A stretch of DNA of 64,000 bases, taken from NCBI GenBank assembly GCA_934184665.1, contig CAKPSX010000001.1:1688-65687 (forward strand), given 5' to 3'. The position numbers and the translations under genes were made by a program. This DNA comes from an uncultured Clostridia bacterium. GTDB lineage: Bacteria; Bacillota; Clostridia; TANB77; CAG-508. The notes beneath the pieces are model-generated. The model made no database searches, was not told the origin of the DNA, and worked only from the letters and a program-made list of their open reading frames with translations. How positions within the stretch are numbered: the first letter of the stretch is position 1; each line of letters opens with the position of its first letter. Below are positions 15,537-60,699 of the stretch, piece after piece.

Positions 15537-15581
15537 ACCTCAATTATGAGAATAAGAATTTCATAATTGGGTTTTTTTACG
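15537..15581 (+). terminator. rho-independent terminator after the VanW gene
   Basis: A hairpin (caattatga...tcataattg) is followed by gggttttttt. Confidence 0.6.
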
Positions 15582-15958: not shown

Positions 15959-18900
15959 ATGAAAAAAGAGATTATCAGGAGAATATTTGCAATAATAGCA
16001 ATTTTTACAATGTTAGTGACAGACTTGGCACCACTTGGAACAGGTCTGATAAGTTATGCTGCAGATTTGAATAAATCGACGAATAACACTAATATTGAAT
16101 TTTCTGCGTATTTCAAGAATGAAGAGGGAGAAAGAATAAGTGAAATAACAACAAATGTACAAGAACTGAAAATGTATGCAGAGATTACAGTGAAAAATGA
16201 AGGATATTTCAATGGAGCACTGGAATTAACAGAAGGAAATTTCAACTTCAAAAATCAAATTCAGAGTGATGGAATAGGAAAAATTGAAGGAAATAAAATA
16301 ACATTAAACCAGATAAATGCAGGAAACACTGTGGAAATTGAAATAGGAATAATACCAATAAACTCAGATACAATCCAGGAATCTCAACTAAAGATGGAAT
16401 CAAAAATAAAACTAGCAGGCACATATATGGAGACATCGTACAAGGGAAAAGATATAGAAGCGGAAAAAACAGTTAATTTAAAACTAAGTGCACGAGAAAA
16501 CACCGATATAGAACAAAATAGCGAAGTTGTAACAAACAAAATATATAATGTAAATGGGGCAAACAAAAGAATAGTGCAAATAGCTGTAAAATCAAGAATA
16601 ACAGATAATAACTACCCAGTAAAAACATCAACAATAAAAGCAATAATACCGGAAAAAAACAAACAAAACTTAGAACAAGTCAAAATAGTCCAATTTAACT
16701 CAAAAGCGACAAATGGAAATGAAACAGTAAACACACAAGAATGGGATAAAACAGCAACAGAAGTACAAATGAAAACAGAAAATACAGGAGAATCAATATC
16801 ATGGAAAAAAGGAGTATATGACGAATATATTATAACTTATATTTTCAAAGAGGAAACAAATATAGCAGGAACAGACTTACAAATAACTGAAGAAACGGAG
16901 ATATACAACAAAGAAGATAAAATAACAAAAGATATTATAAATAATATAGGCACAGAAGAAATAGGAAAAACCATTGTAACAGAGATAAAAGATAATCAAG
17001 GAGAAATATACAAAGGTCAACTATATGCCAATTCTAGAACAGATGACAAAAGAACAATAAATTACAACACAACAACGAAAATTACAATAAGAGAAAAAAA
17101 TATAATAGACTCAGTGAAAGTAAAAGAAGAAAAAGATGCATATACAACTGCAGAAACAGGTGATTTAGAACTTAATGAAACATATAAATATACAAGAATA
17201 AACAAAGAAAAAATGATAGAACTACTAGGGGAAAGCGGAACAATACAAATCAAATATGGAGATTATAATGTAAATACAATATCAGCAGAAGATGAAGCTG
17301 ATGAAAATGGAGAATTAATTGCAAAATATGATGAACAAGTTGGAGAAATAGAAATAGTAACATCAAGACCAGTAAAAGAAGGAACATTAGAAATTAAGCA
17401 TGAAAAAGAAATACTACCAAGTAATTATACAGAAGAGCAAATAAAGCCAATAACAGGGATAAAAACAAAAAATACTATAACAGGGTTGATTAGAAATCAA
17501 GAAGTAATAACAAACACAACAGAACAAACAAAAGAATTAAAAGAAACACAATCAAAAACAGAACTTACAGTAAATAAAGTGAACTTATCAACAATGTCAG
17601 AAAACAAAGATGTAGCGCTAGGGGTTAAATTTATAACAAATGGAACACAATATGATTTATTTAAAAACCCAATAGTAGTTATTCAACTACCAGAACAAGT
17701 AAAAGATGTGACACTGAAAGGAGTTGACAAAGTATGTGGAGATGAATTCACAATAACAAGAAAAGAATATGATAAAACACATAAGAGTATTGAAATAGAA
17801 TTAGACGGAGAGCAAACAGCATATGCAGAAAATGATGCAACACAATTATATTTACAAGTTAATTTAGATATAACACTAGAACAAACAGCAGCAAGTAAAA
17901 CAGAAAAAATAATAATGTCATATAAAAATGAGAACGCGATTCAATATGCGGAAAATGGAGTTACAGAAAAAGCAATAAATATAGCAGCGCCAAGTGGAAT
18001 AATAACAATAAATAACTTAAATACATATAACATAAATTCAGTAGCAGGAATAAGTCAAAACAAACAAACAGCTAATATAGATAAAAACACAGAGGGTGGA
18101 AAAAATGTAGAATATAAAATATCAGTAGTAAACAACACAGGAAGCAACATAAATAATGTAAAAATATTAGGATATTTCCCAACAAAAGGAGAAATACAAA
18201 CACAAAACGAAACAATAACAAATACATTAGAAACAAGTGTTGCGCAAGCAATACAAGCTGGAAACGCCAGAGTATATTATAGTGAAAATAGCAAAGCAAC
18301 AGCAGATTTAGAAAATACATCAAATGGTTGGACACAAGACACAAGTGCAATAGCAAATGCAAAAGTTTACTTAATAGACTTAGGAACAATGAATGTTGGA
18401 ACAAGTTTTACAACAGGATATATAAGCAAAATATCAACAAACATAGATTATAATTTATCATCATATGCAGGATATAAAGTTTTATATAATGATGAACAAA
18501 ATACACAAATACAAACAGTAGAGTCAACATTGGTGGGAATGGAAACAGAAAATAGAATAACAGAAACAGACTTAAAAATAGAAACAAATATAGAAGCAAC
18601 AGTTGGAAATGACGTATTAAAAAATGGAGATACAGTAAAAGCAGGGGAGATAATTAAATATAAAGTAACTGCAAAAAATACAGGGGATAAAGATTTAAAA
18701 AATGTAACAATAAAAGGTTTAGTTCCAGAAGGAACAGTCGTAACAGAGTTTATTACGCCTCAAGGGGCAGATACGGATTTTGAAGAACCAGAATGGCCAA
18801 TATATTGGAAGGAGAAAAAGGAGCTAAAAGAAGTTTCTAAAACAGTAGATTTAGAACAAGGACAAGAATATAGCATAGAATATGAAGTAAGAGTAAACAT

Positions 18901-20800
18901 GGATATTACAAATGGAACAGAAATATCAAATAGAGCAGTGGTAACCTGCGGAGGACTTACTTTAAATGGTAATGAAATAAAAAATATACTTCAAGAATCA
19001 AAAATAAGAATAAGTTTAGTAGAAATGAATACAGAAAAAAAACCAGTACAACCAAATACTTTAAGAGATTACTTTTTAATTGTTGAAAACACATCAAATG
19101 AACCTATAAAAAACTTAAAATTAAAAATGCAAAACTCAGGAGAAGAACTAGTAAAGATTTTAGACAATAATCTTAATTACATATTACAAGAAGATGGATA
19201 TGCAAATATAGAAGAGATTCCAGCAAATGATATGGTTGTTTTAGAAATCATGGCAACAGTATCACAAAGTGACTTACAACAAGTAGAATCAGTAGCATTA
19301 ATTACAGATTCAAATGAAAATACATATAGATCAAATAAATTAATTAGTAAATTAGAACAGGCAAAAGTAGAATTAAGTTTAACAAGTCCAACAGCAGGAC
19401 AATATGTAAACATAGGAGATTATATAATTTATAATATAACAGTAGAAAACCCAACAAACTGTGTAGAAGATGTGGAAATATCAAATCAATTATCAGAATA
19501 CTTAGTAGTTGAGGAAGTATATATAAATGGGGAATTAACAATTCAATCTATAAATCCTGAAGATACAGAAACATATCTTCAAGACATACTAAATGAAACA
19601 ACATATACTCTAATAATAGAAGAAAATCAGAAAAGCGAAATATCTATAAAAGCTAGAGTAAATGAAATTACTGAAGATTTTGATAAAATAACAATAACAA
19701 ATACTGCGCAAGCTACAGTAAAAGGAGAAGTAAAAGCAACATCAGAAGAAATAACACACACAATAGTTAGACAAGCCAGTGAATCAGAAGAAAAAATAAT
19801 AAGTGGTGTTGCATGGTTAGATGAAAATCAAGATGGACAAAAAGATACAAATGAAAAGTTATTACAAGATATAACAGTAAGATTGTTAGACACAGAAACA
19901 AATCAACTTGCTATAGACAAAGAAGGAAATATACTTGAGACAACAACAGGAGAAGATGGAACATACAAATTTAGCAAAGTACAGGAAGGAATATACATAG
20001 TAGTATTTGATTATGACACAACAAAATATGAACCAACAATTTATATGAAAGATGGAGTTAGTACAGGACTAAATTCAAAAGCACTTGCAAAAGTATTTGA
20101 TGGAGAAGTTAAAGGAAATGCAGGAACAGATATAATATATTTAACAGAAAATTTATATGATATAAATTTAGGCTTAAAACAAAACTTAAAATTCGACTTA
20201 GAATTAGGAAAATATATAAATACAATAGTTGTACAAAATGCAAAAGGAACAAAAACATATGAATGTAAAGATAATGAAACACTAAAGAAAATAGAAATAA
20301 ATTCAAAACAAATTGAAGGTTCAGTAGTAGTATTAGAATACAAAATAAAAGTAAAAAATACTGGGGAAATTGCAGGATATGTTACAAACATAAGAGATTA
20401 TTTACCAAATGGATTAACATTTAGCTCAGAATTAAACCCAAACTGGTACTTATCAGGAAAGGATTTATACACAAAAAGTTTAGCAAATACAAGAATAGAA
20501 CCAGGAGAAGAAAAAGAAATAAACTTGATATTAACAAAAACAATGACATCAGACAATGTGGGACTAATAAACAATAGAGCAGAAATTGCAGAAAACTATA
20601 ATGAACTAGGAAAACAAGATATAGATTCAACAGCAAATAACCAGTCAAGTGAAGAAGATGATATGGGAGCAGCAGATGTAATCATAGGAATAAGCACAGG
20701 TATGAAAACAGCAATATCTACAATTTTAATAACATTAAATATATGCTTAATAGGTTTTGCAATATATTTAATATCTAGAAAAAGCAGTGAAATAAACTAA
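15959..20800 (+). CDS. giant secreted surface protein A (1613 aa) with DUF11/TIGR01451 repeats, an SdrD-B/CnaB-type domain and a C-terminal acidic patch + GISTGM + TM + basic tail
   Basis: The signal peptide is MKKEIIRRIFAIIAIFTMLVTDLAPLGTGLISYAAD. Repeats are of the type KAGEIIKYKVTAKNTGDKDLKNVTIKGLVPEGT. The SdrD-B-like segment is ISGVAWLDENQDGQKDTNE...GEDGTYKF. The C-terminus is EEDDMGAADVIIGISTGMKTAISTILITLNICLIGFAIYLISRKSSEIN. Confidence 0.85.
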   Translation: MKKEIIRRIFAIIAIFTMLVTDLAPLGTGLISYAADLNKSTNNTNIEFSAYFKNEEGERISEITTNVQELKMYAEITVKNEGYFNGALELTEGNFNFKNQIQSDGIGKIEGNKITLNQINAGNTVEIEIGIIPINSDTIQESQLKMESKIKLAGTYMETSYKGKDIEAEKTVNLKLSARENTDIEQNSEVVTNKIYNVNGANKRIVQIAVKSRITDNNYPVKTSTIKAIIPEKNKQNLEQVKIVQFNSKATNGNETVNTQEWDKTATEVQMKTENTGESISWKKGVYDEYIITYIFKEETNIAGTDLQITEETEIYNKEDKITKDIINNIGTEEIGKTIVTEIKDNQGEIYKGQLYANSRTDDKRTINYNTTTKITIREKNIIDSVKVKEEKDAYTTAETGDLELNETYKYTRINKEKMIELLGESGTIQIKYGDYNVNTISAEDEADENGELIAKYDEQVGEIEIVTSRPVKEGTLEIKHEKEILPSNYTEEQIKPITGIKTKNTITGLIRNQEVITNTTEQTKELKETQSKTELTVNKVNLSTMSENKDVALGVKFITNGTQYDLFKNPIVVIQLPEQVKDVTLKGVDKVCGDEFTITRKEYDKTHKSIEIELDGEQTAYAENDATQLYLQVNLDITLEQTAASKTEKIIMSYKNENAIQYAENGVTEKAINIAAPSGIITINNLNTYNINSVAGISQNKQTANIDKNTEGGKNVEYKISVVNNTGSNINNVKILGYFPTKGEIQTQNETITNTLETSVAQAIQAGNARVYYSENSKATADLENTSNGWTQDTSAIANAKVYLIDLGTMNVGTSFTTGYISKISTNIDYNLSSYAGYKVLYNDEQNTQIQTVESTLVGMETENRITETDLKIETNIEATVGNDVLKNGDTVKAGEIIKYKVTAKNTGDKDLKNVTIKGLVPEGTVVTEFITPQGADTDFEEPEWPIYWKEKKELKEVSKTVDLEQGQEYSIEYEVRVNMDITNGTEISNRAVVTCGGLTLNGNEIKNILQESKIRISLVEMNTEKKPVQPNTLRDYFLIVENTSNEPIKNLKLKMQNSGEELVKILDNNLNYILQEDGYANIEEIPANDMVVLEIMATVSQSDLQQVESVALITDSNENTYRSNKLISKLEQAKVELSLTSPTAGQYVNIGDYIIYNITVENPTNCVEDVEISNQLSEYLVVEEVYINGELTIQSINPEDTETYLQDILNETTYTLIIEENQKSEISIKARVNEITEDFDKITITNTAQATVKGEVKATSEEITHTIVRQASESEEKIISGVAWLDENQDGQKDTNEKLLQDITVRLLDTETNQLAIDKEGNILETTTGEDGTYKFSKVQEGIYIVVFDYDTTKYEPTIYMKDGVSTGLNSKALAKVFDGEVKGNAGTDIIYLTENLYDINLGLKQNLKFDLELGKYINTIVVQNAKGTKTYECKDNETLKKIEINSKQIEGSVVVLEYKIKVKNTGEIAGYVTNIRDYLPNGLTFSSELNPNWYLSGKDLYTKSLANTRIEPGEEKEINLILTKTMTSDNVGLINNRAEIAENYNELGKQDIDSTANNQSSEEDDMGAADVIIGISTGMKTAISTILITLNICLIGFAIYLISRKSSEIN

Positions 20801-20812
20801 AGGGGGATGGAA

Positions 20813-23800
20813 ATGAATAAAATAAAAAAAGTGATTTTTATATTATTAATTAGTTTCGCTATTTTAATATTGAAAAACAATGTTTCTTTTGCTGCCGTAG
20901 ATATTACAAGCTTACATGAAAATGCTGTAAAACAAAAAGTAACAATCGGACAAAGATCAGGTCAATACAGACTAGAAGGAACAAACAATGTATATTGTAC
21001 ACAACACGAAAAATCCATGTATAACAATGCATATGCAAAAGTTAATACATATATAAAAATTAGTGGAAATAAAGTTCAAATCAGACAAGAAAATTCTGCC
21101 ACTTTAAAAGATGCAACATATAAAACAGGCTCAAATGCAGAAGAAATAAAAAATTGGAATCCTGCTTGGGGACCAGCTCCTAATCTATATGAATATAGTG
21201 GATATACAGAATATTATGCATTAGCTAATATATTAAAAAATATGCAAGGATATGGACGCTATAATGCATATACAACAACGCAAAGAAAATTATATGGATT
21301 TTTAAACCAAAGGCAAATCTTTATAGCAAATGAATTAGGACCATTTTTCAGCTCAAGGAATTATAATAAGACTAAAGATTTCTCAAAAGAATGGGCAGAT
21401 GCACAAACAGCGGAAAAAACAGGAAAAGGGTTCCAGGGAACATTAGAAATATACCTTTTAGTTCCAATAACATCAAGTGGACAAAATAAAATTGGTGTAC
21501 AAAACCTTATGGTAGTAACATATTCACCAAAAGTAGAAGTAGTAGATACAGCACTAACAATAAAAAAAGTAGATGCATATACAAACGATGTATTAGCAGG
21601 CGCTAAATTTATAATAGGTCAACAAGGAACAGGAAGTAATGGACAAGATGTATACCTAAAAAATTCAGTTAACCAAGGAAATACATATGATTATGAATGG
21701 ACAACAAATAAAAGCGAAGCAAAAATATATACGACAGATAAATACGGAAAAATTAATTTATATGATTTACCAGAAAAAATTAATGGAACAGATACATACA
21801 TAGTTTATACAATAGAAGAAACAGAACCGCCAGATGGTTATAAGAGCAATAGCAATAATAGACAAACAATGACAGCAACATTTTCGGGTGGATTAGAAGT
21901 CACAGTAACAGTTACTAATATACCTGACAGTTTTGATAATCAGTTAATTATTTACAAAAGAGATGCAATGACAAAAGAATCGCTTGAAGGAGTAGGGTTT
22001 GTTATAAAGAGACAATTGTTAAATCAATCTGTATCATCTAATGGAGAACACTGCTGGGATAATTCAGAATGGAGATATTTAAGAACAAATGGAAATGGCT
22101 CATATGAATGGGTTTCATCTAAGAGTAGTGCAGACACGTTTTATACAGATGCAAGTGGTAGAATAGTAATAAAAAATCTTGAAGTTTCAGAAACAACATA
22201 TGTATGGGAGCATTTTAGAGGATTATGTAGGTATCATAGTGGATATCGACAATACATATATCATCGTTCAGGTCACTATATGCCAAGAGAAACCCCAATA
22301 AATTATCAAGTAGAAGAAGTATCTATGCCATCAAAGCTATATGGAGACTATTGGGGAAATATAGGAAACCAAAAAAGCTTTGTTTTAACACCAAACTCAT
22401 CAAATGATTATATAACACAAGTTACAGTGGATAATATGCCAATATCTAAGCCTACAGGAAATGTGAAGATATCAGGAAAGGTTTGGGTGGAAGGAGCATC
22501 AACAAGTAAAGGAAACGGAAATTTCAATGATGAATATAATTCAGGAAAAGATGAATTATTAGCAGGAATAAGAGTATATTGGAAAGATGCATCAGGAAAT
22601 ATTATATCTACTGCGGTAACAAATGGTAATGGAAGATATGAGATGGGATATACAATAAATTATGATTTCTGTACATGGTCAATGGATCAACAAGTATATA
22701 ATAGATTAAATAACTCATATATAGAATTTGAATATGATGGTAAGAAATATACGACAGTAAAAAATAATATGAGAAACTCGGAAAATACATCACGTGCAAT
22801 AGAAAATTATGATTCAAAAGCTAAATCAAGATATGATTTAGACTCATCATTTTGCAAAGTAAATAATAATGGAATTTATGATAGTGATAGTGGAGGAAAT
22901 AGAGTAACAGACTTTACGGTAACAGCAGATACAAGCAAAATAAAAAATATATTATCAGGAAGATATTATGACATAGAAACAGTAAGAAAAAATGGATGTA
23001 TTTATCACACATATAGAACAGTACATCATAAAGATGGATCAACAAGTACAGAAACAGTACACCATTATGATTACAGAATAACAGAATGGAACATAAAAAA
23101 CATGAACCTAGGATTGTTTGAAAAAGAACAACCTGATTTAGGACTAGTATCAGATATAGCAAAAGTAGATGTAATAATGAAAGGACAAAAATATACATAT
23201 ACAAATGGAAATAGAGGAATAACATCAGATGATTATGGTGTAAATACTAAAGTATCTTTTGGAAATAATGAAACATATAATAGACCAGTAAATCCATCAG
23301 ACATAGCATATGTAAATGATAATAATACTCAAGACCTAGAAGTATATATAACATATAATATAAGAGTACAAAATCAATCATCAACATTATATACACAAGT
23401 AAAAGAAATTGTTAATTATTATGATAGTAGACTTGAAATAGTTCAATCAGACAATCCTAAAAAACAATGGCATGATACGAGTCAATATAGTACATATGGA
23501 AACCAAATTAAATCGAATGGATTTAATAAAGCATACAGTACTGAACTCGCGACAGATGAGGATGGATATGATTTACTTTTGGAACCACAGACTTTATCTG
23601 ATACAATAGAAATAAAATTTAGAGTAAAAGATGAAGTAGTAAAAAGCTTAATAAATCAAGAGCCTATATTATTTAGCAATGTATCTGAGATTTATGCATA
23701 TGCATCATATTATGGAAGTGATACATGGTGTGCAGAACACACAACAGCACAAGATAGATGGAGAACAGGACAAAGGTATTCGGGATTAGATATTGACTCA

Positions 23801-25753: not shown

Positions 25754-25916
25754 ATTACCAAAAACATTATGGAAACCTTATGCAAATAACTGGAAAACCA
25801 GAAAAACAAGTCAAAAAAACAAAAAAATTGTCAAAAAAAATTGTAAAAATCTGAAAATTGTGATATCATATAAAGAGGATTAAAAGTAGAATATTATGAT
25901 AAATGGAGGAAAGATG

Positions 25917-28900
25917 ATGAAAAGAAAAATTTTAGAAAAATTGTTGGTATCAATAATGATAATCACACTATCAGCAACCGACTTTTTAACGTTGGGCGCA
26001 AACTTAGTAAGTTATGCTACAGATTTGAGCAAAACAACAAACAATAATAACATTGAATTTTCTACATACTTCAAGGATGCAGAAGGTAACAAAGTTGACA
26101 CAGTACAGGAAGACATAAACAAAGAAGACCTTAAACTATATGCAGAAATTGCAGTAAAAAGAGAAGGATACTTTAATGGAACAATAGAATTACAAGAAGG
26201 TAACTTCAACTTCAAAAATACTGCAAGTGAAGGAATAAGCCATATAGATGGTAACAAAATAACATTAAACCAAATAAATGCTGGAAGCACTGTAGAAATA
26301 GAATTAGGCATAGCACCAGTTAAATCAGAGCAAATGATGCTAAGCCAATTAAATATGACATCAAAGATAAAATTAGCAGGAACATATATGGAAACTTCAT
26401 ATAAAGGAAAAGACATAAGTGCAGAAAAAAATGTTACTTTAAACCTAATAGCAGATGAGGCAAACTCATCTGCTGAGGTAAGCAACGAAATTGTAACAAA
26501 CAAAATCTTTAATGTTAATGGTGAAAATAAGAGAATAGTTCAAATGTTAGTAAAATCAAAAATAACAAATAATAACTATCCAGTAAAACAAACAACACTA
26601 ACAGCAGAAGTACCAGAAACGAATAAAGATAAACTACAAAAAATTGAAGTAGTAGCATTAAGAACAGAAGCAACAAATGGACAAGAAAACAATACAACTG
26701 TTACAAGTTCAACAACAGAAAATGGCGCAGAAATTCAAAACACACAAATAACAGTTGAAAATGCTGGTGAAACAATCAGCTGGAAAAGAAATACCTCAGA
26801 TGAATTTATCGTAACATATATATATGATGAAAATGCAAATGTAAATGGAACAGAATTTAAAACAAATACAGAAATAGAATTATATAACACAGAAAATAAA
26901 TTCAGTAAAGAAACATCAGCAATTGTAGGGACAGAAGAACTAAGCAATGTTGTGGTATCAGAAATTGAACTAGATAACACAGAAACATACAAAGGTCAAT
27001 TATATGCAAATACTAAAACAGAAGACAAAAAAGAAATACCTTTTAATACAACAACAAAAATCTTAGTAAGATCAGCAGGAATTGCAGAAGCAATAGATGT
27101 TAAAGAAGAAAAAGATACATTTACAGGAATTGAACTTGATGCAAATACAAGATATGTACAAACAGCAATAAATAGAGAAAGAATGTTAGCAATGCTAGGG
27201 CAAGATGGATATTTAGATATAACAGCAGGAGGAACAAGCTATAGACTAACAAAAGACAGTGAAGTAAATGAAAATGGAAACATAATAATTAATTACAATG
27301 AAACAGTAAGAGAAATAGAAATTTCAACAAGTAAACCAGTAAATGCAGGAGTATTAAACATTCAACATGAAAAAGCAATAATGGCAAGTGATTATGTTAC
27401 AGAACAAATAAAACCTGTAACAGGATTGATAGCAAAAAATATATCAACAATGAAGGCAACAATAGATACAACAGTTGAAAAAGGCGTTCAAGAAGCGGCA
27501 GAAAAAATTGCAGGAGCAACAACGGATGCAAAAAACGCAGCTGAAGACGTGATAAAAGATGGTGTTAAAGAAGCTGGAGAAAAAATTTCAGAAGTAATAA
27601 CTAAAAACGAAGATTCAGCAGAAAAACCATTAAAAGAAACATACTCAAAAGTTGAATTAACAGTAAATAAAGCAAACTTATCAACAATGTCAGTAAACAA
27701 TGATGTAGCATTAGGAGTTAAATTTATAACAAATGGAACACAATATGATTTATTTAAAAATCCAAAAGTAGTTATTCAATTACCAGAACAAGTAAAAGAT
27801 GTAACATTAAAAGGAATAGATAAATTATATGGAGATGAATTTACAATAACAAAGAAATCATATGACAAAGTAAATAAAATGATTGAGATTGAATTAAATG
27901 GAGAGCAAACAGCATATGCAGAAAATGATGCAACACAATTATATTTACAAGTTAATTTAGATATAACACTAGAACAAACAGCAGCAAGCAAAACTGAAGA
28001 AATAACAATGTCATATAAAAATGACAATGCTACAAATTATTATGAAGATGGAATTGTTACAAAAGCCGTAGGAATAAGTGCACCAAGTGGAATAATAACA
28101 ATAAACAATTTAAACACATACAACATAAATTCAGTAGCAGGAATAAATGAAAGCAAACAATTGGTAGACTTAGATAAAGAAACAGCTGGTGGAACAAATG
28201 CAGAATATCAAATATCAGTAGTAAATAACACAGGAAGTAAAATAAATAATACAAAAATATTAGGATATTTCCCAACAAAAGGAGAAATACAAACACAAAA
28301 TGAAACAATAACAAACACATTAGAAACAAGTGTTGCGGAAGCAATAAAAGCAGGAAATGCAAAAGTATATTATAGCGAAAATAGCAAAGCAACAGCAGAT
28401 TTAGAAAACACATCAAATGGTTGGACACAAGATACAAGTGCAATAGCAAATGCAAAAGTTTACTTAATAGACTTAGGAACAATGAATATTGGTGCAAGCT
28501 ACACAACAGGATATACAAGCAAAATATCAACAAATATAGACTATGATTTATCATCATATGCAGGATATAAAGTTATATATAATGATGGAGAAACTACACA
28601 AACAGTAGAATCAACATTAGTTGGTATGACAACAGAAGGCGGAATAAAAGCAGAAGATATTAAGATGGAAACGTCAGTATCCGCAACAGTTGGAAATGAT
28701 ACACTAAAAGATGGTGATACAGTAAAAGCAGGTGAAGTTATAAGATATAAAGTTACTGCTAAAAATGTTGGAGAAAGAAAACTTAAAGATGTTACAATTA
28801 AAGGACAAGTTCCAGAAGGAACAGTTCTAGTAGAACCAGAAGAAGAATTCAAATCAACAGGACTATCATATTATGTGGAAAAAACAGATGCAAAAGAAGT

Positions 28901-30893
28901 TTCAAAAACAATAGAAAGTATTGAACCAGGACAAGAATACAGTATAGAATATGAAGTTAGAGTTAATATGAATGCAACAAATGGAACAGAAATAACAAAC
29001 AAAGAAATTACAACATGTGGAGAATTTAAACAAGAAGGCAATGAAATGAAATTAAAAATTGCCGAATCAAAGATAAGGGTAACATTAAAGAAATTAGTAG
29101 ATGCAGATATAGATAGTGTATATACTGGTGAATACATGGAATACACAGCATTTGTAGAAAACTTATCAAATGAAGCAGTAAAAGATGTAACACTAAAGAT
29201 AAATACAACAGGTGCAGAACTTGTATATTTAGATGACAGCGAAGGAAATGACATGGAAAAAACAAACGAAATAAAAATTAGTGAAATTGCACCAAATGAA
29301 AAAATAGGTTATTCATTCTCAGTAGAAATTAAAGAAGATGCAATAAAAGAGTTTGACACAAGTGTTATAGTAAAAGATGCTGATGGAAATGAATATAGAG
29401 CAAATAAAGTTGATTTAAAAATTAATCAACATAATGCAAAAGTAAGTTTAACAACACCAAATAATGGTGATTATGTAGAATCTGGAGATGAAATAAGATA
29501 TGAGATAGAAATTACTAACTCAGAAAATTCAATCCAAGTAGTAAAAGTACATGACAATATACCAGAAGAATTAGAAATACAAGAAATAATCGAAAATGGT
29601 GAAACTGTAATGCAAATAACTGATGACACAGTAGAAGATACATTTGTAGGAAATATATCTAATCAAATAACTTATCCAACAATATTACAACCAAATGGAA
29701 CTACAAAGATTACAATAATAACAAAAGTAAGAGAAAGTCAAGAACAATCTGAAACAAAAACAATAAAAAATGTAGTAGAGGTAAAAACAGAAAAAACATT
29801 ATCTGGAGAATTACAAGAAATAACATTAGGTAAATCAGAAGAAGTAACACATATTATTAAAGGAACAATAAGTGAAGAAATGAAACACATCATAAGTGGT
29901 GTTGCATGGTTAGATGCAAATGGAAATGGACAAAAAGATACAGACGAAACAGTATTACCAGATATTACAGTAAGATTATTAGATACAAAAACAGATAAAC
30001 TTGCAACAGATAGAGATGGAAATGCATTAGAAACAAAAACAGGAGAAGATGGAACATATACATTTAGTAAAGTTGAAGAAGGTCAATATATAGTAGTATT
30101 TGACTATGATACAACAAAATATGAACCAACAGCTTATATGCAAAGTGGAGTTAGTGATGGACTAAATTCAAAAGCAATAGCAAAAGTATTTGACGGAGAA
30201 GTTAAAGGTAATGCAGGAACAGATACTATAGAATTAACAGAAAGTGTATTTAATATAAACTTAGGTTTAAAACAAAACTTAAAATTCGACCTAGAACTAG
30301 GGAAATATATAAATTCAATAGTAGTACAAAATTCAAAAGGAACAAAAACATATGAATGCAAAGATAGTGAAACATTTAAGAAAATAGAAATAAGTTCAAA
30401 ACAACTTAATGATTCAATAGTAGTATTAAATTACACAATAAGAGTAAAAAATACTGGAGAAGTTGCAGGATATGTTTCAAATATCAGAGATTACTTACCA
30501 AGTGGACTAACATTTAGTTCAGAATTAAACCCAGACTGGTATTTAGCAGGACAAGACTTATATACAAAGAGTTTAGCAAATGCAAGAATAGAACCTGGAG
30601 AAGTAAAAGAAATAAAATTAGTACTAACAAAAACAATGACAACAGACAATGTTGGATTAGTAAACAACAGAGCGGAAATAGTAGAAAGTTATAATGAACT
30701 TGGAAAAGTTGATATAGATTCAACAGAAAACAATCAAGCAAATGGAGAAGATGACTTAGGTTCAGCAGATGTAATTATTGGTATAAGTACAGGTATGACA
30801 AATATCTTAAATATAACATTAATAATAATTAACACTGGATTAATAGCATTTGCAATATATTTATTATTCAGAAAGAAAAATGAAACGAAGTAG
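25917..30893 (+). CDS. giant secreted surface protein A' (about 1658 aa), paralog of A
   Basis: It has the same architecture as A. The N-terminus is YATDLSKTTNNNNIEFSTYFKDAEGN, compared with YAADLNKSTNNTNIEFSAYFKNEEGE in A. Central DUF11 segments are near-identical to A. The C-terminus is GEDDLGSADVIIGISTGMTNILNITLIIINTGLIAFAIYLLFRKKNETK. Confidence 0.85.
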   Translation: MKRKILEKLLVSIMIITLSATDFLTLGANLVSYATDLSKTTNNNNIEFSTYFKDAEGNKVDTVQEDINKEDLKLYAEIAVKREGYFNGTIELQEGNFNFKNTASEGISHIDGNKITLNQINAGSTVEIELGIAPVKSEQMMLSQLNMTSKIKLAGTYMETSYKGKDISAEKNVTLNLIADEANSSAEVSNEIVTNKIFNVNGENKRIVQMLVKSKITNNNYPVKQTTLTAEVPETNKDKLQKIEVVALRTEATNGQENNTTVTSSTTENGAEIQNTQITVENAGETISWKRNTSDEFIVTYIYDENANVNGTEFKTNTEIELYNTENKFSKETSAIVGTEELSNVVVSEIELDNTETYKGQLYANTKTEDKKEIPFNTTTKILVRSAGIAEAIDVKEEKDTFTGIELDANTRYVQTAINRERMLAMLGQDGYLDITAGGTSYRLTKDSEVNENGNIIINYNETVREIEISTSKPVNAGVLNIQHEKAIMASDYVTEQIKPVTGLIAKNISTMKATIDTTVEKGVQEAAEKIAGATTDAKNAAEDVIKDGVKEAGEKISEVITKNEDSAEKPLKETYSKVELTVNKANLSTMSVNNDVALGVKFITNGTQYDLFKNPKVVIQLPEQVKDVTLKGIDKLYGDEFTITKKSYDKVNKMIEIELNGEQTAYAENDATQLYLQVNLDITLEQTAASKTEEITMSYKNDNATNYYEDGIVTKAVGISAPSGIITINNLNTYNINSVAGINESKQLVDLDKETAGGTNAEYQISVVNNTGSKINNTKILGYFPTKGEIQTQNETITNTLETSVAEAIKAGNAKVYYSENSKATADLENTSNGWTQDTSAIANAKVYLIDLGTMNIGASYTTGYTSKISTNIDYDLSSYAGYKVIYNDGETTQTVESTLVGMTTEGGIKAEDIKMETSVSATVGNDTLKDGDTVKAGEVIRYKVTAKNVGERKLKDVTIKGQVPEGTVLVEPEEEFKSTGLSYYVEKTDAKEVSKTIESIEPGQEYSIEYEVRVNMNATNGTEITNKEITTCGEFKQEGNEMKLKIAESKIRVTLKKLVDADIDSVYTGEYMEYTAFVENLSNEAVKDVTLKINTTGAELVYLDDSEGNDMEKTNEIKISEIAPNEKIGYSFSVEIKEDAIKEFDTSVIVKDADGNEYRANKVDLKINQHNAKVSLTTPNNGDYVESGDEIRYEIEITNSENSIQVVKVHDNIPEELEIQEIIENGETVMQITDDTVEDTFVGNISNQITYPTILQPNGTTKITIITKVRESQEQSETKTIKNVVEVKTEKTLSGELQEITLGKSEEVTHIIKGTISEEMKHIISGVAWLDANGNGQKDTDETVLPDITVRLLDTKTDKLATDRDGNALETKTGEDGTYTFSKVEEGQYIVVFDYDTTKYEPTAYMQSGVSDGLNSKAIAKVFDGEVKGNAGTDTIELTESVFNINLGLKQNLKFDLELGKYINSIVVQNSKGTKTYECKDSETFKKIEISSKQLNDSIVVLNYTIRVKNTGEVAGYVSNIRDYLPSGLTFSSELNPDWYLAGQDLYTKSLANARIEPGEVKEIKLVLTKTMTTDNVGLVNNRAEIVESYNELGKVDIDSTENNQANGEDDLGSADVIIGISTGMTNILNITLIIINTGLIAFAIYLLFRKKNETK

Positions 30894-33800
30894 TAAAGGG
30901 GTGAAAGATGTGAGTAAATTGAAAAAAATATTTTTCATACTAATGATGACCTTACTGATTGTGCTATTGAAAAATAGCACATGTCAGGCAACAGCACAGG
31001 AAGTCCTAGGGCTAAAAGAAAATGCCGTTGGTAAGACAGTATATACAGGTGGTTCTGAATTATATAATAGATGGGGAAATTTTGAAAATGTATATTGTGC
31101 AAGACAAGACAAAACATTAAATGATGGTCAAAACTATAATTGTCAAGTAGTTTATTACATAGAGCTTAAAGGAAATGAAGCAAACTTCTGTAATAGAACT
31201 AATCCTACATTAAGACCAGCAACTGGTTCAGGAACAGATTACAGATGGGGACAATTAGCAAATATATTAGCATTAGGAAAAAATAAAGGATATAGAACTT
31301 CAGCAGGATGTACAGATACCCAATATGGATTATGGTATTTCCTTGGAACACAAAACGAATGGATAAAAGAAAAGTTTGGAGCAAGCTGGATGATTCAATC
31401 AAGTTATTTTACACATGCTAGATGGCAAACAACAGTTAAATTAGGAAAATCATATAGTGATAAATGTGCTAACTTAGCTAAAAATAATTCAGGATATAAA
31501 GGAACAGTAAGAATATACTGGCTAGAAGCTAAAAACCAAAGTGTTAACCAAAGTCTTATGATAGTTGAACTTGAAGATAGCAAAGAATCAGAAATGATAC
31601 TAATAGACAAACAAGATAGTAATGATAAATCATATTTAGGTGGAGTATCATTCAAAGTAAAAAATGATGCAAGCGGAATGTACATCAAAAAAGCAGATGT
31701 AGTTGATGAAAAAAATTCTGATAGATATGTATATGAGGTAAAAGACCCATCAACATCAAATACAGAATATTGGACATCAGACATATCTCAAGCAATGACG
31801 TTTACAACAGGTACGGAAAAGAATTATAAGGGAATACAAATAAAAGGTATTCCATCTGGAACATATACAGCAATTGAAACATCAAATCCACATAGTGGAT
31901 ATGAAGGTAGTATAAACAAAACATTTAGTATATCATCAACATCTTATGAAGATTACACAAACTCAAATATACTATATAATACAAAACAAGAACAAGGAAG
32001 CGGAAATGTTAAAATTTCTGGAACGGTATGGGAAGATATTGCTAGCAACAAAGAAAATGATGGTAAAGGTAATAGTAAAAAAGATAGCGGAGAAAAAGGT
32101 ATCGAAGGAGTAAAAGTATATTGGAAAAGCGCAGATGGTAGTATAATTGCAAGTACGACAACTGGAAGTGATGGAAGCTACACAATGAGAACCAATATCG
32201 ACTTAGGATTCTGTAGATGGTATATTGATCAAGCAGCATATAACAGAATAAACAATTCATATGTAGAATTCGCTTATAATGGATTAACATATACAACAGT
32301 TGCATACGCATCAAATGGCGACGCAGATACATCAAAAGTAATTGAAAATTCATCATCAAGAACAAGTTTAGACAATTCATTTAGTCAAATAAGCAATAAA
32401 GGTGTTTCAACAAATGGCTCAAGACTAGAATATACATATAGCTCTAACCCAGAAGTAGGTTCAACAAGAATTGCAACATTAAGTTCTCCAACAAGTATGA
32501 GTGATTTTACAGTAACAGCAGACACTAAAAATGTATTAAGTAAATATAAATTTTTACAAACATATCCTGCATTAGATACACAAGAGAGATCAGGATGTAT
32601 AAGACACCATTATGTATCATGTTCAAAACATGGAAGTCACCATGTATGTGACGAATATGGAAGCAAAACAGTATCTTGGGAAATATCTAATGTAAACTGT
32701 GGATTATATAAAAGAGAACAACCAGACCTTGCAATAGGTACAGATATTGAAAAAGTTGACGTTATAATGAAAGGACAACAATATACTTATAAATATGGTC
32801 AAAGAGGATTACCAGATGGAAGCTATAAATATGACAAAGTAAGTTTTAGTGATAGAAATACTGAGAAATATAATAGACCAGTAAATCCATCAGATATAGC
32901 ATATATCAATAAAGATGGAAATAATCCAGATGACTTACAAGTATATGTAACATATAATGTAAGAGTACAAAATCAATCTAGAAATTTAATGGCAGAAGTA
33001 CAGGAAATTGTAAACTATTATGATGCAAATTATTCTTTATTCGATGGTAATTGGCGAGATGTAAGTAAAAATGGAGATAGATATAATTCAAATGGATTTA
33101 AGGCAGCATATAATCAACAATTACAAGGCGTAAAACTTGCACCAGGTGAAGAATCAGAAACAATTAGTTTAACATTAAAAGTTAATAATGATGTTGTAAA
33201 AGAATTAATACAAAAAGACAGATTATTTAAAAATGTTTCAGAAATATATATGTATTCATCATATTACGGAAGTAATGCATTATGTGCAGAATATCAAACA
33301 GCAAGTGAAAAAGGCAGAACAGGAAAGCAATATGCTGGAATAGATAAAGATTCAGCACCAGGAAATGCAGAAATTAAAATATCAAATAACACATTAGATA
33401 TATCTACATTTGAAGATGATACAGGTATAGCTCCAACATTTATGCTAATAAAAGCAGATAATTACAAACAGATATCAGGTACAGTATATGAAGATTCAAC
33501 TACTGTAAATGATAATAAAAGACTTGGAGATGGACAAAATAATGGAGAGAAAGGTGTAGCAAATGTCAGAGTGGACTTATTAAAAGTTAATGATGATGGT
33601 AGTACACAATTAGCAGATTTATATTATATTGAAAATGGTGAGGCTAAAACAAAACAAGCTACGACATATACAGATGCAAATGGACATTATGAATTCGGAA
33701 ATAATGCCAAAGAGGGAGAAGACTCAGGAGTTGTAGTAGACAACTATATTGTAAAATACACATACGGAAATAATACAGAATCAACGGTAAAATACGGTGA

Positions 33801-35283
33801 TACAGAAGAAAAAGAATTATCAAAAGGAGAAACAAAAGTAAATACAGAATTAAAAGAAGGCGAAAGCTCAACAATAAATGCAAGAGACTATAAATCTACA
33901 ATAATAACAGATAATGCAATAAGTTCAGTAATGAGAAAAAATAATGATAATAATCAAGAGCAAATTACACAAAAAGATTTACAATGGCATTTAACAAAAT
34001 CAGGAAATACATCAATAGCAGTAGATGATATAGATGATTTACAATGGTATTTCCGTAATGATAATAATGAACTTGTAAAAATAGATGTAAACTCATTAAA
34101 GGAAGGCTCTTATGATGTAAATGCAAGATTGCAGATATCATCATTAATGAATGGAAACTTTAATAAAGGTGTAAATGTATCATCATACAGTTTACCATTT
34201 AAAGTTCAACTAGAATATACAGCTGATCAAGAAAGTAATGTAGGAGAAGATGGAGGAAACTTTGATTACAACTGGGATAAATTCAACTTTGGTATTGCAG
34301 AAAGAGCAAGAGAAGACATATATGTTGATAAAACAATAAAAAATCTAAAAATAACATTAGCAAATGGTCAAGTATTAACAGAAGGTAACCCATATACAGA
34401 TAGTATGGATTATGTAAGAGCACTTGGTTCAAAAGATGTAATTAATAGTAGAGAAGATTTCAACAAAGCATTTACAAAACAAAGAGAAATCTTTATGGAA
34501 ATGGATACAGAATTAATCCAAGGTGCAACACTAGAATTATTATATGAAATAACAGTAACAAATAATAGTGAAGTAGACTATGAATATGACAGAAGTGTAA
34601 TTGGTGGAGAAGGAGCAAATTATGAAAAATATTACTACTATGGTGAAGCTAAAACAAACCCAATAAAACAATCTGTAGAATATTTAGTAGACTATGTTGA
34701 CCCAGACTTAGTATGTGAAGCTGGTACAGGTACAGCAAATGCAAACTGGCAAAAAATAGAGGCTAAGACATTATATGATGCAGGTAATATTTCGAAAGAA
34801 GTTTATGAAGGAAAGAAAAACGATGAAGGCAAAGTACTAGATCAAATGAAAGGTGTAGTAGATGGAAAATATACAATACTTGTAACAAATGCATTCAAAA
34901 ACTTAGCAGCAGGAGAATCACATTCAGAAACATTATATGCAAGTAAATTGCTAGCAACACAATCAGCAGAACATGTATATGAAAACCATACAGAAATAAT
35001 CCAATTAAATGGTAGAATGGCAAGAACAATAGATGGAACAAACAACGGAAAACAAATTGCTAAAACATATATACCAGGAAATTATATGCCAAGCACAAAA
35101 GCGAGAGCAGCAGAAGAAACATCATTAACAAGATTACATGAACAAGATGATGATGCAATAACAGTAAGAATAACACCACCAACAGGTCTAGAAAACAATG
35201 CAATTATATATATATCAGTAGGAGTAATAGTATTAGTACTACTAGCAGGTGGAATATACTTCATAAAAAGAAAAACAGTATAA
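30880..35283 (+). CDS. giant secreted surface protein B' (about 1467 aa), paralog of B
   Basis: The start overlaps the A' stop by 14 nt. The signal peptide is MKRSSKGVKDVSKLKKIFFILMMTLLIVLLKNSTCQA. The N-terminal domain contains VYCARQD...CTDTQYGLWYF. A CnaB motif YTAIETSNPHSGY is present. The C-terminus is EQDDDAITVRITPPTGLENNAIIYISVGVIVLVLLAGGIYFIKRKTV. Confidence 0.85.
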   Translation: MKRSSKGVKDVSKLKKIFFILMMTLLIVLLKNSTCQATAQEVLGLKENAVGKTVYTGGSELYNRWGNFENVYCARQDKTLNDGQNYNCQVVYYIELKGNEANFCNRTNPTLRPATGSGTDYRWGQLANILALGKNKGYRTSAGCTDTQYGLWYFLGTQNEWIKEKFGASWMIQSSYFTHARWQTTVKLGKSYSDKCANLAKNNSGYKGTVRIYWLEAKNQSVNQSLMIVELEDSKESEMILIDKQDSNDKSYLGGVSFKVKNDASGMYIKKADVVDEKNSDRYVYEVKDPSTSNTEYWTSDISQAMTFTTGTEKNYKGIQIKGIPSGTYTAIETSNPHSGYEGSINKTFSISSTSYEDYTNSNILYNTKQEQGSGNVKISGTVWEDIASNKENDGKGNSKKDSGEKGIEGVKVYWKSADGSIIASTTTGSDGSYTMRTNIDLGFCRWYIDQAAYNRINNSYVEFAYNGLTYTTVAYASNGDADTSKVIENSSSRTSLDNSFSQISNKGVSTNGSRLEYTYSSNPEVGSTRIATLSSPTSMSDFTVTADTKNVLSKYKFLQTYPALDTQERSGCIRHHYVSCSKHGSHHVCDEYGSKTVSWEISNVNCGLYKREQPDLAIGTDIEKVDVIMKGQQYTYKYGQRGLPDGSYKYDKVSFSDRNTEKYNRPVNPSDIAYINKDGNNPDDLQVYVTYNVRVQNQSRNLMAEVQEIVNYYDANYSLFDGNWRDVSKNGDRYNSNGFKAAYNQQLQGVKLAPGEESETISLTLKVNNDVVKELIQKDRLFKNVSEIYMYSSYYGSNALCAEYQTASEKGRTGKQYAGIDKDSAPGNAEIKISNNTLDISTFEDDTGIAPTFMLIKADNYKQISGTVYEDSTTVNDNKRLGDGQNNGEKGVANVRVDLLKVNDDGSTQLADLYYIENGEAKTKQATTYTDANGHYEFGNNAKEGEDSGVVVDNYIVKYTYGNNTESTVKYGDTEEKELSKGETKVNTELKEGESSTINARDYKSTIITDNAISSVMRKNNDNNQEQITQKDLQWHLTKSGNTSIAVDDIDDLQWYFRNDNNELVKIDVNSLKEGSYDVNARLQISSLMNGNFNKGVNVSSYSLPFKVQLEYTADQESNVGEDGGNFDYNWDKFNFGIAERAREDIYVDKTIKNLKITLANGQVLTEGNPYTDSMDYVRALGSKDVINSREDFNKAFTKQREIFMEMDTELIQGATLELLYEITVTNNSEVDYEYDRSVIGGEGANYEKYYYYGEAKTNPIKQSVEYLVDYVDPDLVCEAGTGTANANWQKIEAKTLYDAGNISKEVYEGKKNDEGKVLDQMKGVVDGKYTILVTNAFKNLAAGESHSETLYASKLLATQSAEHVYENHTEIIQLNGRMARTIDGTNNGKQIAKTYIPGNYMPSTKARAAEETSLTRLHEQDDDAITVRITPPTGLENNAIIYISVGVIVLVLLAGGIYFIKRKTV

Positions 35284-35338: not shown

Positions 35339-35370
35339 AAGACCACGGATTCCTCCGTGGCCTTTTTGCT
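35339..35370. terminator. bidirectional hairpin terminator between B' and the minus-strand tRNA-Lys
   Basis: A hairpin (gaccacgga ttcc tccgtggcc) is followed by TTTTTG. The reverse strand also reads as a T-rich run. Confidence 0.55.
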
Positions 35371-35434: not shown

Positions 35435-35510
35435 TGGTGCACCATAGAGGAGTCGAACCTCCGACCATTTGATTAAGAGTCAACTGCTCTACCAACTGAG
35501 CTAATGGTGC
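35435..35510 (-). tRNA. tRNA-Lys (anticodon CUU)
   Basis: The reverse complement reads gcaccattagctcagttggtagagcagttgactcttaatcaa...ggttcgactcctctatggtgcacca. The anticodon loop is ctcttaa and a CCA is encoded. Confidence 0.8.
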
Positions 35511-40563: not shown

Positions 40564-42000
40564 GTGAAAAAGTTTTTAGAAATCATAAAAAATAAATGGT
40601 TAATTAGAGGTACAACAACAGTTCTTTTAGTGGCTATAATTATTGCCATATATCTTTTATTGAACTGGGGTGTTAGTAAACTTAACTTAGAAGATATAGA
40701 CTGTACGGAAAAGAAATTATATTCTTTATCAGATGAAACAAGGCAAAAATTAAAAGATATTGATAAAGATGTAACAATTCAATTAATAAATATGACTGAT
40801 AATACTTATGTAACAGAATATGTAAAAAAATATGAAAAAGCATGTGATAAAATAAAAGTTGAAGAAATACCAGATTTAACAGCAAGAGTTGATTTAATGA
40901 CAAAATACGGTATGAAAGATTCAGATAGTTTAATTGTTGTAAAAACAGATGAAAAAGAGACAAAACTAACAGAAGATGATTTATATACATTTGATTACAC
41001 AAACTATCAAGAAATTGATACAACAGAAGAATCAATTACAAATGCAATCGTAGAAGTTATAATTAATGAAAAACCAAAAGTATATGTACTATCAGGAAAA
41101 AGTTATTATACAACAGATCAAATGCTTGAAACTGTTTTAACACAGTTAAAAGGTGACTCTAATGAAGTTGATTATACAGATATTTTAGTTAATGGAAAAA
41201 TCCCAGATGATTGTAAATGCTTAGTTATAACAACATTATCAAAAGATTTAACAGAAATAGAAAGAGATCAAATAATAGAGTACATCAAAAAAGGTGGAAA
41301 GTTGATGTTATTAACATCTCAAAATATTATTGATGAAGAAACACCAAACTTTAATGAGGTTTTAGCTCAATATGGTGTACAATTAAAATATGGCGTTGTA
41401 TTTGAACAAGATACTTCTAATATGTTACAAGGTAACCCAGATTATATTATTTCAAATGCAACAGCAAGTTTTATGAGTAATATAGATATGAATATGAAAG
41501 TATGCTTACCAGATGCAGGTAGCATAGAGTTTGAGGAATCAGAAAAACTAGAAGAACTTGGTGTAGAATATGAAGTTCTTGCAACAACAAGTGAAAAATC
41601 ATTTTTAAGAACAAACTTAAACTTAACTTCAGCTAAGAAAACAGAACAAGATGGTAATGACCAATCATATATATTAGGGGCTTTAGCAACTAAGAAAATT
41701 TCAGATGATGTAAAATCAGAAATGATAATATTCTCAAGCGAGATATTTGCATCAGATGCGCAAACAGCTGCGGGTTTAAGAGTTGTAGACTTATACAATA
41801 ATAAAGATGTAATAATAAATTCAATTTCACATTTAACTGAAAGAACAGATACAATTACAATAAGAAAAACAGGAGAAGAAGAACCATATACAGTAACAGT
41901 TCAACAACACACAATAATAAGTACTATTATATTTATAATACCATTAATAATTATTATTGCTGGTGTAATTGTATGGGTAATTAGAAAAAGAAAAAAATAA
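40564..42000 (+). CDS. GldG-like ABC-transporter-associated protein (N- and C-terminal TM anchors)
   Basis: A 478-aa protein with an N-terminal TM helix, a large extracytoplasmic domain and a C-terminal TM helix followed by RKRKK. It is the third gene of the ABC operon. Confidence 0.55.
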   Translation: MKKFLEIIKNKWLIRGTTTVLLVAIIIAIYLLLNWGVSKLNLEDIDCTEKKLYSLSDETRQKLKDIDKDVTIQLINMTDNTYVTEYVKKYEKACDKIKVEEIPDLTARVDLMTKYGMKDSDSLIVVKTDEKETKLTEDDLYTFDYTNYQEIDTTEESITNAIVEVIINEKPKVYVLSGKSYYTTDQMLETVLTQLKGDSNEVDYTDILVNGKIPDDCKCLVITTLSKDLTEIERDQIIEYIKKGGKLMLLTSQNIIDEETPNFNEVLAQYGVQLKYGVVFEQDTSNMLQGNPDYIISNATASFMSNIDMNMKVCLPDAGSIEFEESEKLEELGVEYEVLATTSEKSFLRTNLNLTSAKKTEQDGNDQSYILGALATKKISDDVKSEMIIFSSEIFASDAQTAAGLRVVDLYNNKDVIINSISHLTERTDTITIRKTGEEEPYTVTVQQHTIISTIIFIIPLIIIIAGVIVWVIRKRKK

Positions 42001-58363: not shown

Positions 58364-58549
58364 AATTTTCTCCTTCCATGTTTGAAAAATATATCAAAAT
58401 AAATTTCAAACATCTTTGTATGTATTTATTGAATTAAATACATAATTGTTGTTTAATATCTTTATCAACACGATAATGTTTATTATAATCACATTATACA
58501 TAGTTGTGTTGCAAATGTCAAGATAATAATAAAGATTGGAGGGAAAAAT

Positions 58550-58723: not shown

Positions 58724-58725
58724 TC

Positions 58726-60690: not shown

Positions 60691-60699
60691 GAGGAAGTT

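Follow-up and report, generated by a model that had tools for sequence, protein, structure and literature searches.

How do four giant proteins, none of which carries the canonical LPXTG motif, come to end in the same kind of T-G-containing tail, and what do they build at the cell surface? This question was raised by a 64,000-nucleotide stretch of DNA from an uncultured Clostridia bacterium (contig CAKPSX010000001.1; hereafter the window; G+C content of ~28%), in which positions 15959-35283 were found to hold four long open reading frames (ORFs) on the forward strand, designated A, B, A' and B'. An initial annotation had interpreted them as a duplicated two-gene module encoding surface proteins with a shared and unusual signal, possibly belonging to a specialised sorting system. 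It is most likely that A and B represent an adhesin family that is new, unnamed and widespread and whose signal is a variant one, rather than a new sorting system; as to how they work, we lean towards a co-expressed pair of wall-anchored fibrillar adhesins that would be processed by a sortase encoded elsewhere.

The two gene pairs follow each other closely, and every feature of the four genes given below lies on the forward strand. Gene A (15959..20800; 1613 aa), recognised from its ORF and its Pfam and NCBIfam matches, is followed by gene B (20813..25753; 1646 aa), defined by ORF, Pfam and alignment, and then by their paralogues A' (25917..30893; 1658 aa, a length matching the gene call on an identical metagenome contig, with ATG 25914 also possible as the start) and B' (30910..35283; ~1457 aa from GTG 30910). 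A and A' were 58% identical over their full length, and between B and B' the identity was 47% in the C-terminal 1,200 residues and ~27% in the N-terminal domain, so that the reading of two consecutive A-B pairs was upheld. As judged from these sequences, the arrangement is an old tandem duplication of the pair, real and not recent. The B start codon (ATG 20813) follows the A stop codon (20800) after a gap of 12 nt, agrees with the 1646-aa orthologues P0001 and P0286, and is preceded by a ribosome-binding site (RBS), AGGGGG (20801..20806), read directly between the stop and start codons. B and A' are separated by a 160-nt spacer, which closes with another RBS, GGAGG (25904..25908), ahead of A'. 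At the A'-B' junction, a 14-nt overlap had been proposed, which corresponds to a B' start at ATG 30880; this start is possible, and GTG 30910, 16 nt beyond the A' stop codon (30893), is more likely on sequence grounds, since it fits both the RBS AAAGGGG read directly ahead of it (30894..30900) and the homologue N-termini, (M)SKLKK... The proposed A'-B' overlap thus probably gives way to a short gap. Terminator-like hairpins were found after the upstream VanW gene (15539..15571) and after B' (35343..35360), marking the start and the end of the A-B-A'-B' transcription unit region, and none was found inside this unit, including the 160-nt spacer. The tight A-B junction is proposed to give co-expression of the two genes.

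The partnership of A and B, which had been suggested from the window alone, proved to be real and conserved. It was observed that 78 complete A genes were followed by a B gene in 79 non-redundant loci, with a median gap of 18 nt, and the A genes lacking a B gene were mostly placed at contig ends or beside frameshifted B genes; at least two A genes were present in 34 of the 79 loci. More than 500 database matches were obtained for the A family, nearly all of 1,580-1,700 aa, and the C-terminal 1,200 residues of B found 1,244 cluster representatives, 384 of which at E<=1e-30, while a genome scan recovered at least 338 relatives, in loci with 26-34% G+C. All named sources were metagenome-assembled genomes of uncultured Clostridia from human (Hadza, Nepal), rabbit, chicken and mouse gut, and the B protein of the window matched P0286, which is encoded on human (Hadza) gut metagenome contigs, at 100% identity. 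No name for the A or B proteins was found in the databases searched. The 90%-identity cluster of the B orthologue P0001 also included three 1613-aa A orthologues (P0285, P0290 and P0297), which were 94-99% identical to the A of the window, A and B being unrelated over most of their length. This mixed cluster, for which a fused gene call and a clustering artefact are possible origins, explains why the initial search with A did not return its close relatives.

The A-B pair was present in every related genome examined and, on this comparative footing, is regarded as ancient and obligate. Relatives with a 36-50% identical A carried a single pair in the same place, in the order VanW-A-B-PGA_cap-ABC, which indicates that the four-gene state, common to the window and to a 92-98% identical relative, is a lineage-specific duplication. 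In a larger and distant clade, the pair was placed after mreBCD-pbp2-minC and before spoIIE. A megablast comparison of the 19 kb with plasmids gave no match, and in the flanking 16 kb gyrA and tRNA were the only matches, supporting a chromosomal location of this region instead of plasmid or integrative and conjugative element cargo. Read from its gene order, A-B appears as a vertically inherited core chromosomal operon of a large low-GC gut Clostridia clade, and not as mobile cargo. In about 45 loci of the distant clade, two small, conserved minus-strand ORFs (~129 and 152 aa) without Pfam match were always found between minC and A (L003 9356-9697; equivalents L049 8652-9041 and L040 9279-9737), and these may be regulators of the A-B operon.

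The tails of the four proteins were then the central point of the question. Direct reading agreed with the initial annotation in that LPXTG was absent from all four ends, and the same order was found in each of them: an acidic loop leads into a short hydrophobic strand, after which come x-x-x-T-G, a hydrophobic helix and, last, a K/R tail. A and A' end in ...EDD(M/L)G(A/S)ADVIIGISTGM, a transmembrane (TM) helix and a K/R tail, and B and B' end in ...EQDDD...ITPPTGL, a TM helix and KRK. In A, the motif IGISTGM (20684..20704) precedes a C-terminal hydrophobic helix and an RK-containing tail (20705..20797), and in A' the same motif (30777..30797) precedes a TM helix and RKK; ITPPTGL occupies 25640..25660 in B, where the TM helix and KRK extend up to 25750, and 35170..35190 in B', also followed by a TM helix and KRK. 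The LPXTG_anchor model TIGR01167 (cutoff of 15.9 bits) gave 20.2 bits for A', 21.6 for B' and 12.9 for A, and no match for B; family-wide, at E<=0.01, it recognised 22 of 48 B tails (46%) and 8 of 61 A tails (13%). NCBIfam also includes a model named for an LAVTG motif.

When tails were gathered from 120 database homologues and from the genomes of about 75 species, the T-G pair was found to be kept in orthologues, as had been expected of a sortase-type signal. It was present in 92 of 94 distinct A tails, with the consensus [IL][IL]-[SGA]-[IVL]-[KRSQ]-T-G-[GEQ], and in 68 of 73 distinct B tails, with the consensus [IV][IV]-[TIV]-P-[PSNA]-T-G. The second position of the motif was I, V or L in 85 of 92 A tails and P in only three of them, whereas P was found in 62 of 68 B tails, and the B relative P0005 read canonical LPPTG. 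Moreover, in alignments A1 and A5 of the A family, which include a set of 27 sequences down to 34% identity, no sequence departed from T-G, and it stayed while its flanking residues and the helix drifted. Compared with the (S/P)PxTG of the clostridial sortase SrtB, the VPPTG of the pilus protein Cpa and the LPPTG of P0005, the [TIV]-P-x-T-G of B is ordinary and lies within the known clostridial and class B sortase range, and only the proline-less [SGA]-[IVL]-x-T-G of A is out of the ordinary. Sortase motifs without proline do exist, such as the LAXTG of class E enzymes and the NAKTN of Listeria SrtB.

In a few species, the B tail carried F or Y in place of T (ILPPFGD, VVPSYGT and ILPPYGR; L068 12910-17685, L069 21-2498 and 7794-12404, L080 14975-20233 and L081 15077-19900), and the partner A of these proteins kept x-V/I-K-T-G. 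As far as the letters tell, such tails may be a decayed signal or reflect an altered specificity. Other proteins with the same tail, which would point to a general pathway, were also considered, and none of those encoded in the window or in its flanks shared it. The sole look-alike was an ABC_transp_aux (GldG-like) protein (40564-42000), in which IRKTG and 12 polar residues precede a TM helix and a final RKRKK; the resemblance is superficial, and this end is probably a plain C-terminal anchor.

Besides the motif itself, the region preceding it is common to both families. When the last 230 residues of either family were compared as profiles (hhalign), a 99.1% probability and an E-value of 9e-19 over 136 columns were obtained, from which it follows that the terminal domain and the signal of A are homologous to those of B. 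The single, unusual and shared signal of the initial annotation was thus not supported: what the families have in common is this homologous end, and it carries two family-specific motifs, that of B ordinary and that of A a proline-less variant. The shared domain bears the DUF11 signature Y-x-I-x-V-x-N-x-G ... D-Y-L-P ... N-x-A-E-I. CLIPPER domains (formerly DUF11) are CnaA-like, contain a Lys-Asn isopeptide bond and are typical of the stalks of fibrillar adhesins (PMC12617251). In the terminal CLIPPER-like domain of A (20276..20683), which includes the acidic loop EEDDMGAAD, K1450, D1480 and N1539 were invariant, and their spacing was 30/59, compared with 33/58 in the CLIPPER crystal structure 9IFR. 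These residues constitute a candidate isopeptide triad, which would place a Lys-Asn lock just before the motif, and the motif adjoins the last strand of the domain with no linker in between.

Upstream of this common end, the two proteins differ. The A protein comprises a signal peptide, which ends with LISYA at aa 30-34 by direct reading, an immunoglobulin (Ig)-like beta-sandwich rod of ~850 residues, DUF11/CLIPPER repeats, an SdrD_B domain, the terminal CLIPPER-like domain and the sorting signal. The DUF11/TIGR01451 and SdrD_B content assigned to the A-type proteins was reproduced by profile matches above the cutoffs in both A and A': PF01345 gave 34.9 bits in A and 34.6 in A' (cutoff of 24.6), TIGR01451 gave 31.6 and 55.1 (cutoff of 24), in two to three stretches of repeats, and SdrD_B exceeded its curated cutoff in both, with an E-value of about 1e-10. 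In A, the best-scoring DUF11/CLIPPER repeat is located at 18629..18946 (PF01345 E 2.2e-8, also TIGR01451), and the SdrD_B domain at 19808..20041 (PF17210 E 8.5e-10); DUF7927 was additionally matched in A'. The stretch of A that was blank in Pfam (aa 35-890) was modelled with AlphaFold2 from a 55-sequence alignment, resulting in an all-beta model of about eight sandwich domains with a pLDDT of 90. The solved structures closest to this model were the Ig-like domains of PrgB, integrin alpha legs and complement macroglobulin (MG) domains, the top PDB match being PrgB (8beg; Foldseek E 2e-18, TM-score 0.16-0.20), while a PDB sequence search with A found nothing. This is a generic Ig-like chain without a distinct head, and A was consequently taken to be essentially a rod. 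Lysines K352, K483 and K1418 were invariant in the 27-sequence alignment. The only YP-x-K motif of A (aa 219-222) had its Lys kept in 20 of the 27 sequences, and the possibility of A being a pilin with a YPKN-type motif was ruled out on that ground.

In the B protein, the signal peptide is followed by an N-terminal domain that holds an invariant Cys, an SpaA-type domain with YTIEETEPPDGY, a long beta-rich stalk, the terminal CLIPPER-like domain and the sorting signal. The SpaA/CnaB content attributed to the B-type proteins held for B, in which a SpaA (prealbumin-like, CnaB-type) domain was identified at 21554..21886 (PF17802 E 1.5e-8), with the SpaA structure 5fgr (E 3e-4) as the only find of a PDB sequence search. 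In B', only an SdrD_B match below threshold was obtained (28.2 bits versus a cutoff of 29.7), and its SpaA/CnaB assignment is based on the motif YTAIETSNPHSGY (31864-31902) and on paralogy with B. The N-terminal domain of the B family spans ~200 residues, and its sole invariant residue in a 50-sequence alignment was the Cys of h-Y-C-x-[EQ]. This Cys corresponds to aa 62 of B, within VYCTQ (20990..21004), and was found in 50/50 aligned sequences; downstream, TTTQRKLY (21272..21295) resembles the TQxA(I/V)W motif of thioester-forming Gln residues. The equivalents in B' are VYCAR (31090-31104) and TDTQYGLW (31312-31335), and the clade of the window keeps [TSA]-Q-x-[AK]-[LIV]-[WY] as well as a closing Q-N-L-[MI] in this domain. 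We take this layout of a Y-C motif and a Q motif to be that of a thioester domain, in which the Gln of TTTQRKLY would be the candidate thioester Gln.

A thioester-like adhesive head at the N-terminus of B is somewhat the likelier interpretation of this domain, and the assignment of the thioester itself is weak. Weak matches to the thioester domain (TED) model were found in 5 of 50 B-family members and in 1 of 10 further members, and the two with known coordinates begin at profile position 2, which in L013 is the invariant Y-C. Several results speak against the assignment. The match of orthologue L013, the best one, covered profile positions 2-97 of 102 and reached 20.9 bits, below the cutoff of 22; neither B nor B' of the window matched the Pfam TED (PF08341/TQXA); a PDB sequence search with the B N-terminal profile found nothing; and in one subclade (L026, L029, L030, L032, L053 and L075) the Gln is replaced (PVANAIW) and the invariant Cys kept. 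A further homologue search with the B N-terminal alignment returned nothing.

Taken together, A and B are Sec-exported, fibrillar proteins of 1,450-1,660 residues composed of Ig-like and isopeptide-type beta-sandwich domains, both ending in a homologous CLIPPER-like domain with a probable Lys-Asn isopeptide lock. A sortase from elsewhere in the genome, by analogy a class B-like housekeeping enzyme as in Clostridioides difficile, would cleave between T and G and link both proteins to peptidoglycan. B would present a thioester-like, adhesive head on an SpaA/SdrD_B-type stalk, and A would serve as the rod. The search for such an enzyme covered the 64-kb window, 20 kb beyond it and the 10-kb flanks of 81 related loci. 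As the initial annotation had stated, there was no sortase in the window, either by Pfam among the ORFs scanned or as a TLxTC-type motif in any ORF; neither was one found among the genes called in the 10 kb past either end of the window (20 kb in total), nor was a sortase-like ORF found by a TLxTC-type scan within 10 kb in the 81 related loci. In those loci whose called genes came with precomputed Pfam labels, PF04203 was absent from these, and no SipA-like gene was found in or near the locus in the 81 loci. These results argue against a dedicated, locus-linked sortase and a classical pilus cluster. The specialised sorting system found no support, given that the B motif falls within the known range and that no linked sortase was found in the 81 loci.

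The lack of a sortase in the sequence covered is also the first of several points that weigh against the processing of A and B by a sortase and favour, instead, tails that are uncleaved membrane anchors, with x-x-T-G as a structural turn that ends the last beta-strand and was inherited from a common C-terminal module; in a variant of this explanation, A alone would be uncleaved and B would be processed. The A motif does not have the proline typical of most sortase motifs and 87% of the A tails were missed by TIGR01167, and exceptions with F or Y for T occur among the B tails (LPPFG, LPPYG and VPSYG). The motif abuts the last strand without a linker, and the common ancestry of the A and B tail modules could account for T-G with no shared function. 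Moreover, C. difficile SrtB does not cleave LPETG, NPQTN or NVQTG, and the last of these, from CbpA, is the nearest published proline-less clostridial motif and remained uncleaved by SrtB in vitro (PMC4155245, PMC4371152); two SPxTG proteins, with SPSTG and SPQTG, were left unprocessed in vivo in C. difficile (PMC5569036). On the other hand, a mere anchor would hardly be expected to keep T-G invariant to about 30% identity while flanks and helix drift, nor to place the motif 20-35 residues from the end, before a hydrophobic helix and a basic tail, which is the arrangement of a sorting signal. In B, Pro is kept at the LPXTG position in nearly all tails and one relative has LPPTG, and a motif emerging straight from an isopeptide-locked domain is also found in proven class B sortase substrates. 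Uncleaved anchors, considered above all for A, are therefore held to be unlikely, and they retain this measure of credit because the A motif is unusual and its nearest analogue, NVQTG, failed in vitro.

The obligate pairing with a tight junction, found in 78 cases, could also mean that the two proteins are joined. By analogy with pili, the Thr of the B TPPTG would be linked by a sortase to a lysine of A and the signal of A would anchor the complex to the wall, B acting as the tip adhesin and A as the shaft or base; a single class B sortase of dual specificity, as Spy0129 is, may be at work, or else two sortases that differ in specificity. The tip adhesin and stalk picture put forward by the initial annotation fits the all-Ig-like rod of A, with its invariant K352, K483 and K1418, and the possible thioester-type head of B. 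The families hold different motifs, as tip and base pilins do, the xPPTG of B equals the VPPTG of Cpa, the Cys head of B stands where Cpa has thioester domains, and the x-[IV]-x-TG of A shares the V/I position with EVPTG/QVPTG. However, each protein carries a complete anchor signal of its own, none of the 81 loci has a sortase or SipA-like gene alongside, the Lys of the sole YPxK-like motif of A is too variable for a conserved pilin lysine motif, and proteins of 1,600 residues are far above the known size of pilins. Such a covalent fibre is quite doubtful, more so than the uncleaved anchors. Still more remote, and in our view very improbable, is anchoring by the protein encoded directly upstream of A (13676-15523), in which Pfam recognised PG_binding_4, VanW and G5 domains and which would act as the transpeptidase; we know of no VanW enzyme with a protein substrate or a T-G motif. 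Its gene immediately precedes A in the clade of the window, with a 26-nt gap in L004, but this linkage is restricted to one clade, since the larger clade has A-B after mreBCD-pbp2-minC with no VanW gene, and in the window itself the hairpin and 436 nt separate the two genes. What lends the proposal some interest is that VanW proteins were recently recognised as peptidoglycan L,D-transpeptidases in C. difficile (PMC11348318), and that a passage of PMC12274547 describes YkuD-type L,D-transpeptidases as attaching proteins to peptidoglycan in Gram-negative bacteria.

The neighbourhood of the A-B genes deserves some remarks. A tRNA-Lys(CTT) gene (35435-35510, minus strand) lies between the terminator of B' and the PGA_cap gene. 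Near the origin, the ORF at 122-2200, considered as gyrB, was ruled out as such and corresponds to an AAA_10/P-loop_TraG-type ATPase; gyrB lies just outside the window, and the insertion that separates it from gyrA (3184-5628) consists of this ATPase gene and two small ORFs. Several type IV secretion-like genes are dispersed over this origin region (122-2200, 9146-9463 and 9479-10753, also 8268-9137; L004 2674-5829; L085 9417-12857), where a T4SS_pilin-like protein of 105 aa and a TraG/VirD4-like coupling protein adjoin DnaB_2/DnaC-like genes. The TraG/VirD4-like set recurs in a relative whose A is only 48% identical, which indicates that it is conserved and not a recent insertion. A role of A-B in conjugation, as for the adhesin PrgB, was considered on account of these nearby genes and ruled out, since the larger clade has mreBCD-pbp2-minC beside the pair and no such genes. 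At the other end of the window, the region 56334-64000 (L086 5635-21965) looks like an integrated element, with a tyrosine integrase, HTH regulators, a type III restriction-modification methylase (60700-62664), whose Res subunit is located just past the window end, and, further on, Fic, CHAT and HNH genes.

In size, the genes of the A-B pair rank with the largest of these genomes, and their products are prime candidates for building the surface and for attachment to substrates, host mucus or other cells in a widespread group of uncultured Clostridia of the human and animal gut. The present annotation gap would be closed by a dedicated model that covers both the [SGA][IVL]xTG tail and the domain in front of it. 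If the A motif is truly cleaved, the specificity of sortases would extend to a motif in which proline is replaced by a beta-branched or aliphatic residue, which would be of interest for sortase engineering. If the covalent fibre, doubtful as it is, turned out to be true, it would be a giant heterodimeric 'mini-pilus' with subunits of ~1,600 residues, clade-specific and with a new sortase recognition class. The preferred reading of two separately anchored adhesins requires no new sorting machinery and no departure from known biology.

Among known systems, the closest counterpart of the presumed sorting route is found in C. difficile, whose single sortase, the class B enzyme SrtB, cleaves SPKTG, PPKTG, SPSTG and SPQTG between T and G (PMC4155245, PMC4371152). 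Its substrates (for example CD2831, CD3392 and CD2537) have the same x-P-x-T-G, TM helix and basic tail, and SrtB is a housekeeping enzyme encoded elsewhere in the genome; the T-P-x-T-G of the B family differs from S-P-x-T-G by Thr for Ser only. In contrast, A has I, V or L for Pro, and both A and B are far larger, are obligately paired and lack a linker in front of the motif. In the pilus system of S. pyogenes, the class B pilus sortase Spy0129 accepts both the EVPTG of the backbone pilin Spy0128 and the VPPTG of Cpa, the motif of these substrates emerges straight from an isopeptide-locked Ig-like domain, and the characterised pilus clusters treated in the literature consulted here carry their own sortase (PMC3019223). 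The consensus of this FCT pilus, (E/Q/V)(V/P)PTG, overlaps the motifs of both A and B, and there too a Cys-containing adhesive head is found on one partner and the other is a rod. Unlike that system, the A-B locus has no sortase, SipA or basal pilin gene, A and B have no conserved pilin lysine motif and are 3-5 times longer, and the third motif position in A is K, R, S or Q instead of P.

As to the architecture of the proteins, B presumably resembles the TED or 'TIE' adhesins (Cpa, FbaB, SfbI and Clostridium perfringens Cpe0147) in that its head directly follows the signal peptide and is carried on an Ig-like stalk that ends in a sortase-type anchor, whereas the TED scores of the B family remained below threshold and the Gln is not kept family-wide. 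Enterococcus faecalis PrgB, the aggregation substance of pCF10, is an LPXTG-anchored surface protein. It was the top structural match of the A rod, but this match reflects a generic Ig-like chain with no sequence relationship, and A-B belongs to the chromosomal core and not to a conjugation operon. Finally, the CLIPPER fibrillar adhesins (Costa et al. 2025, PMC12617251) are likewise long surface proteins with tandem CnaA-like CLIPPER domains and predicted Lys-Asn bonds, and the terminal domain of A has the invariant K/D/N triad at matching spacing. A passage of PMC9210967 describes fibrillar adhesins as fast-evolving. By contrast, A varies little in length across species (about 1,580-1,700 aa), retains many invariant residues and is always paired with B.

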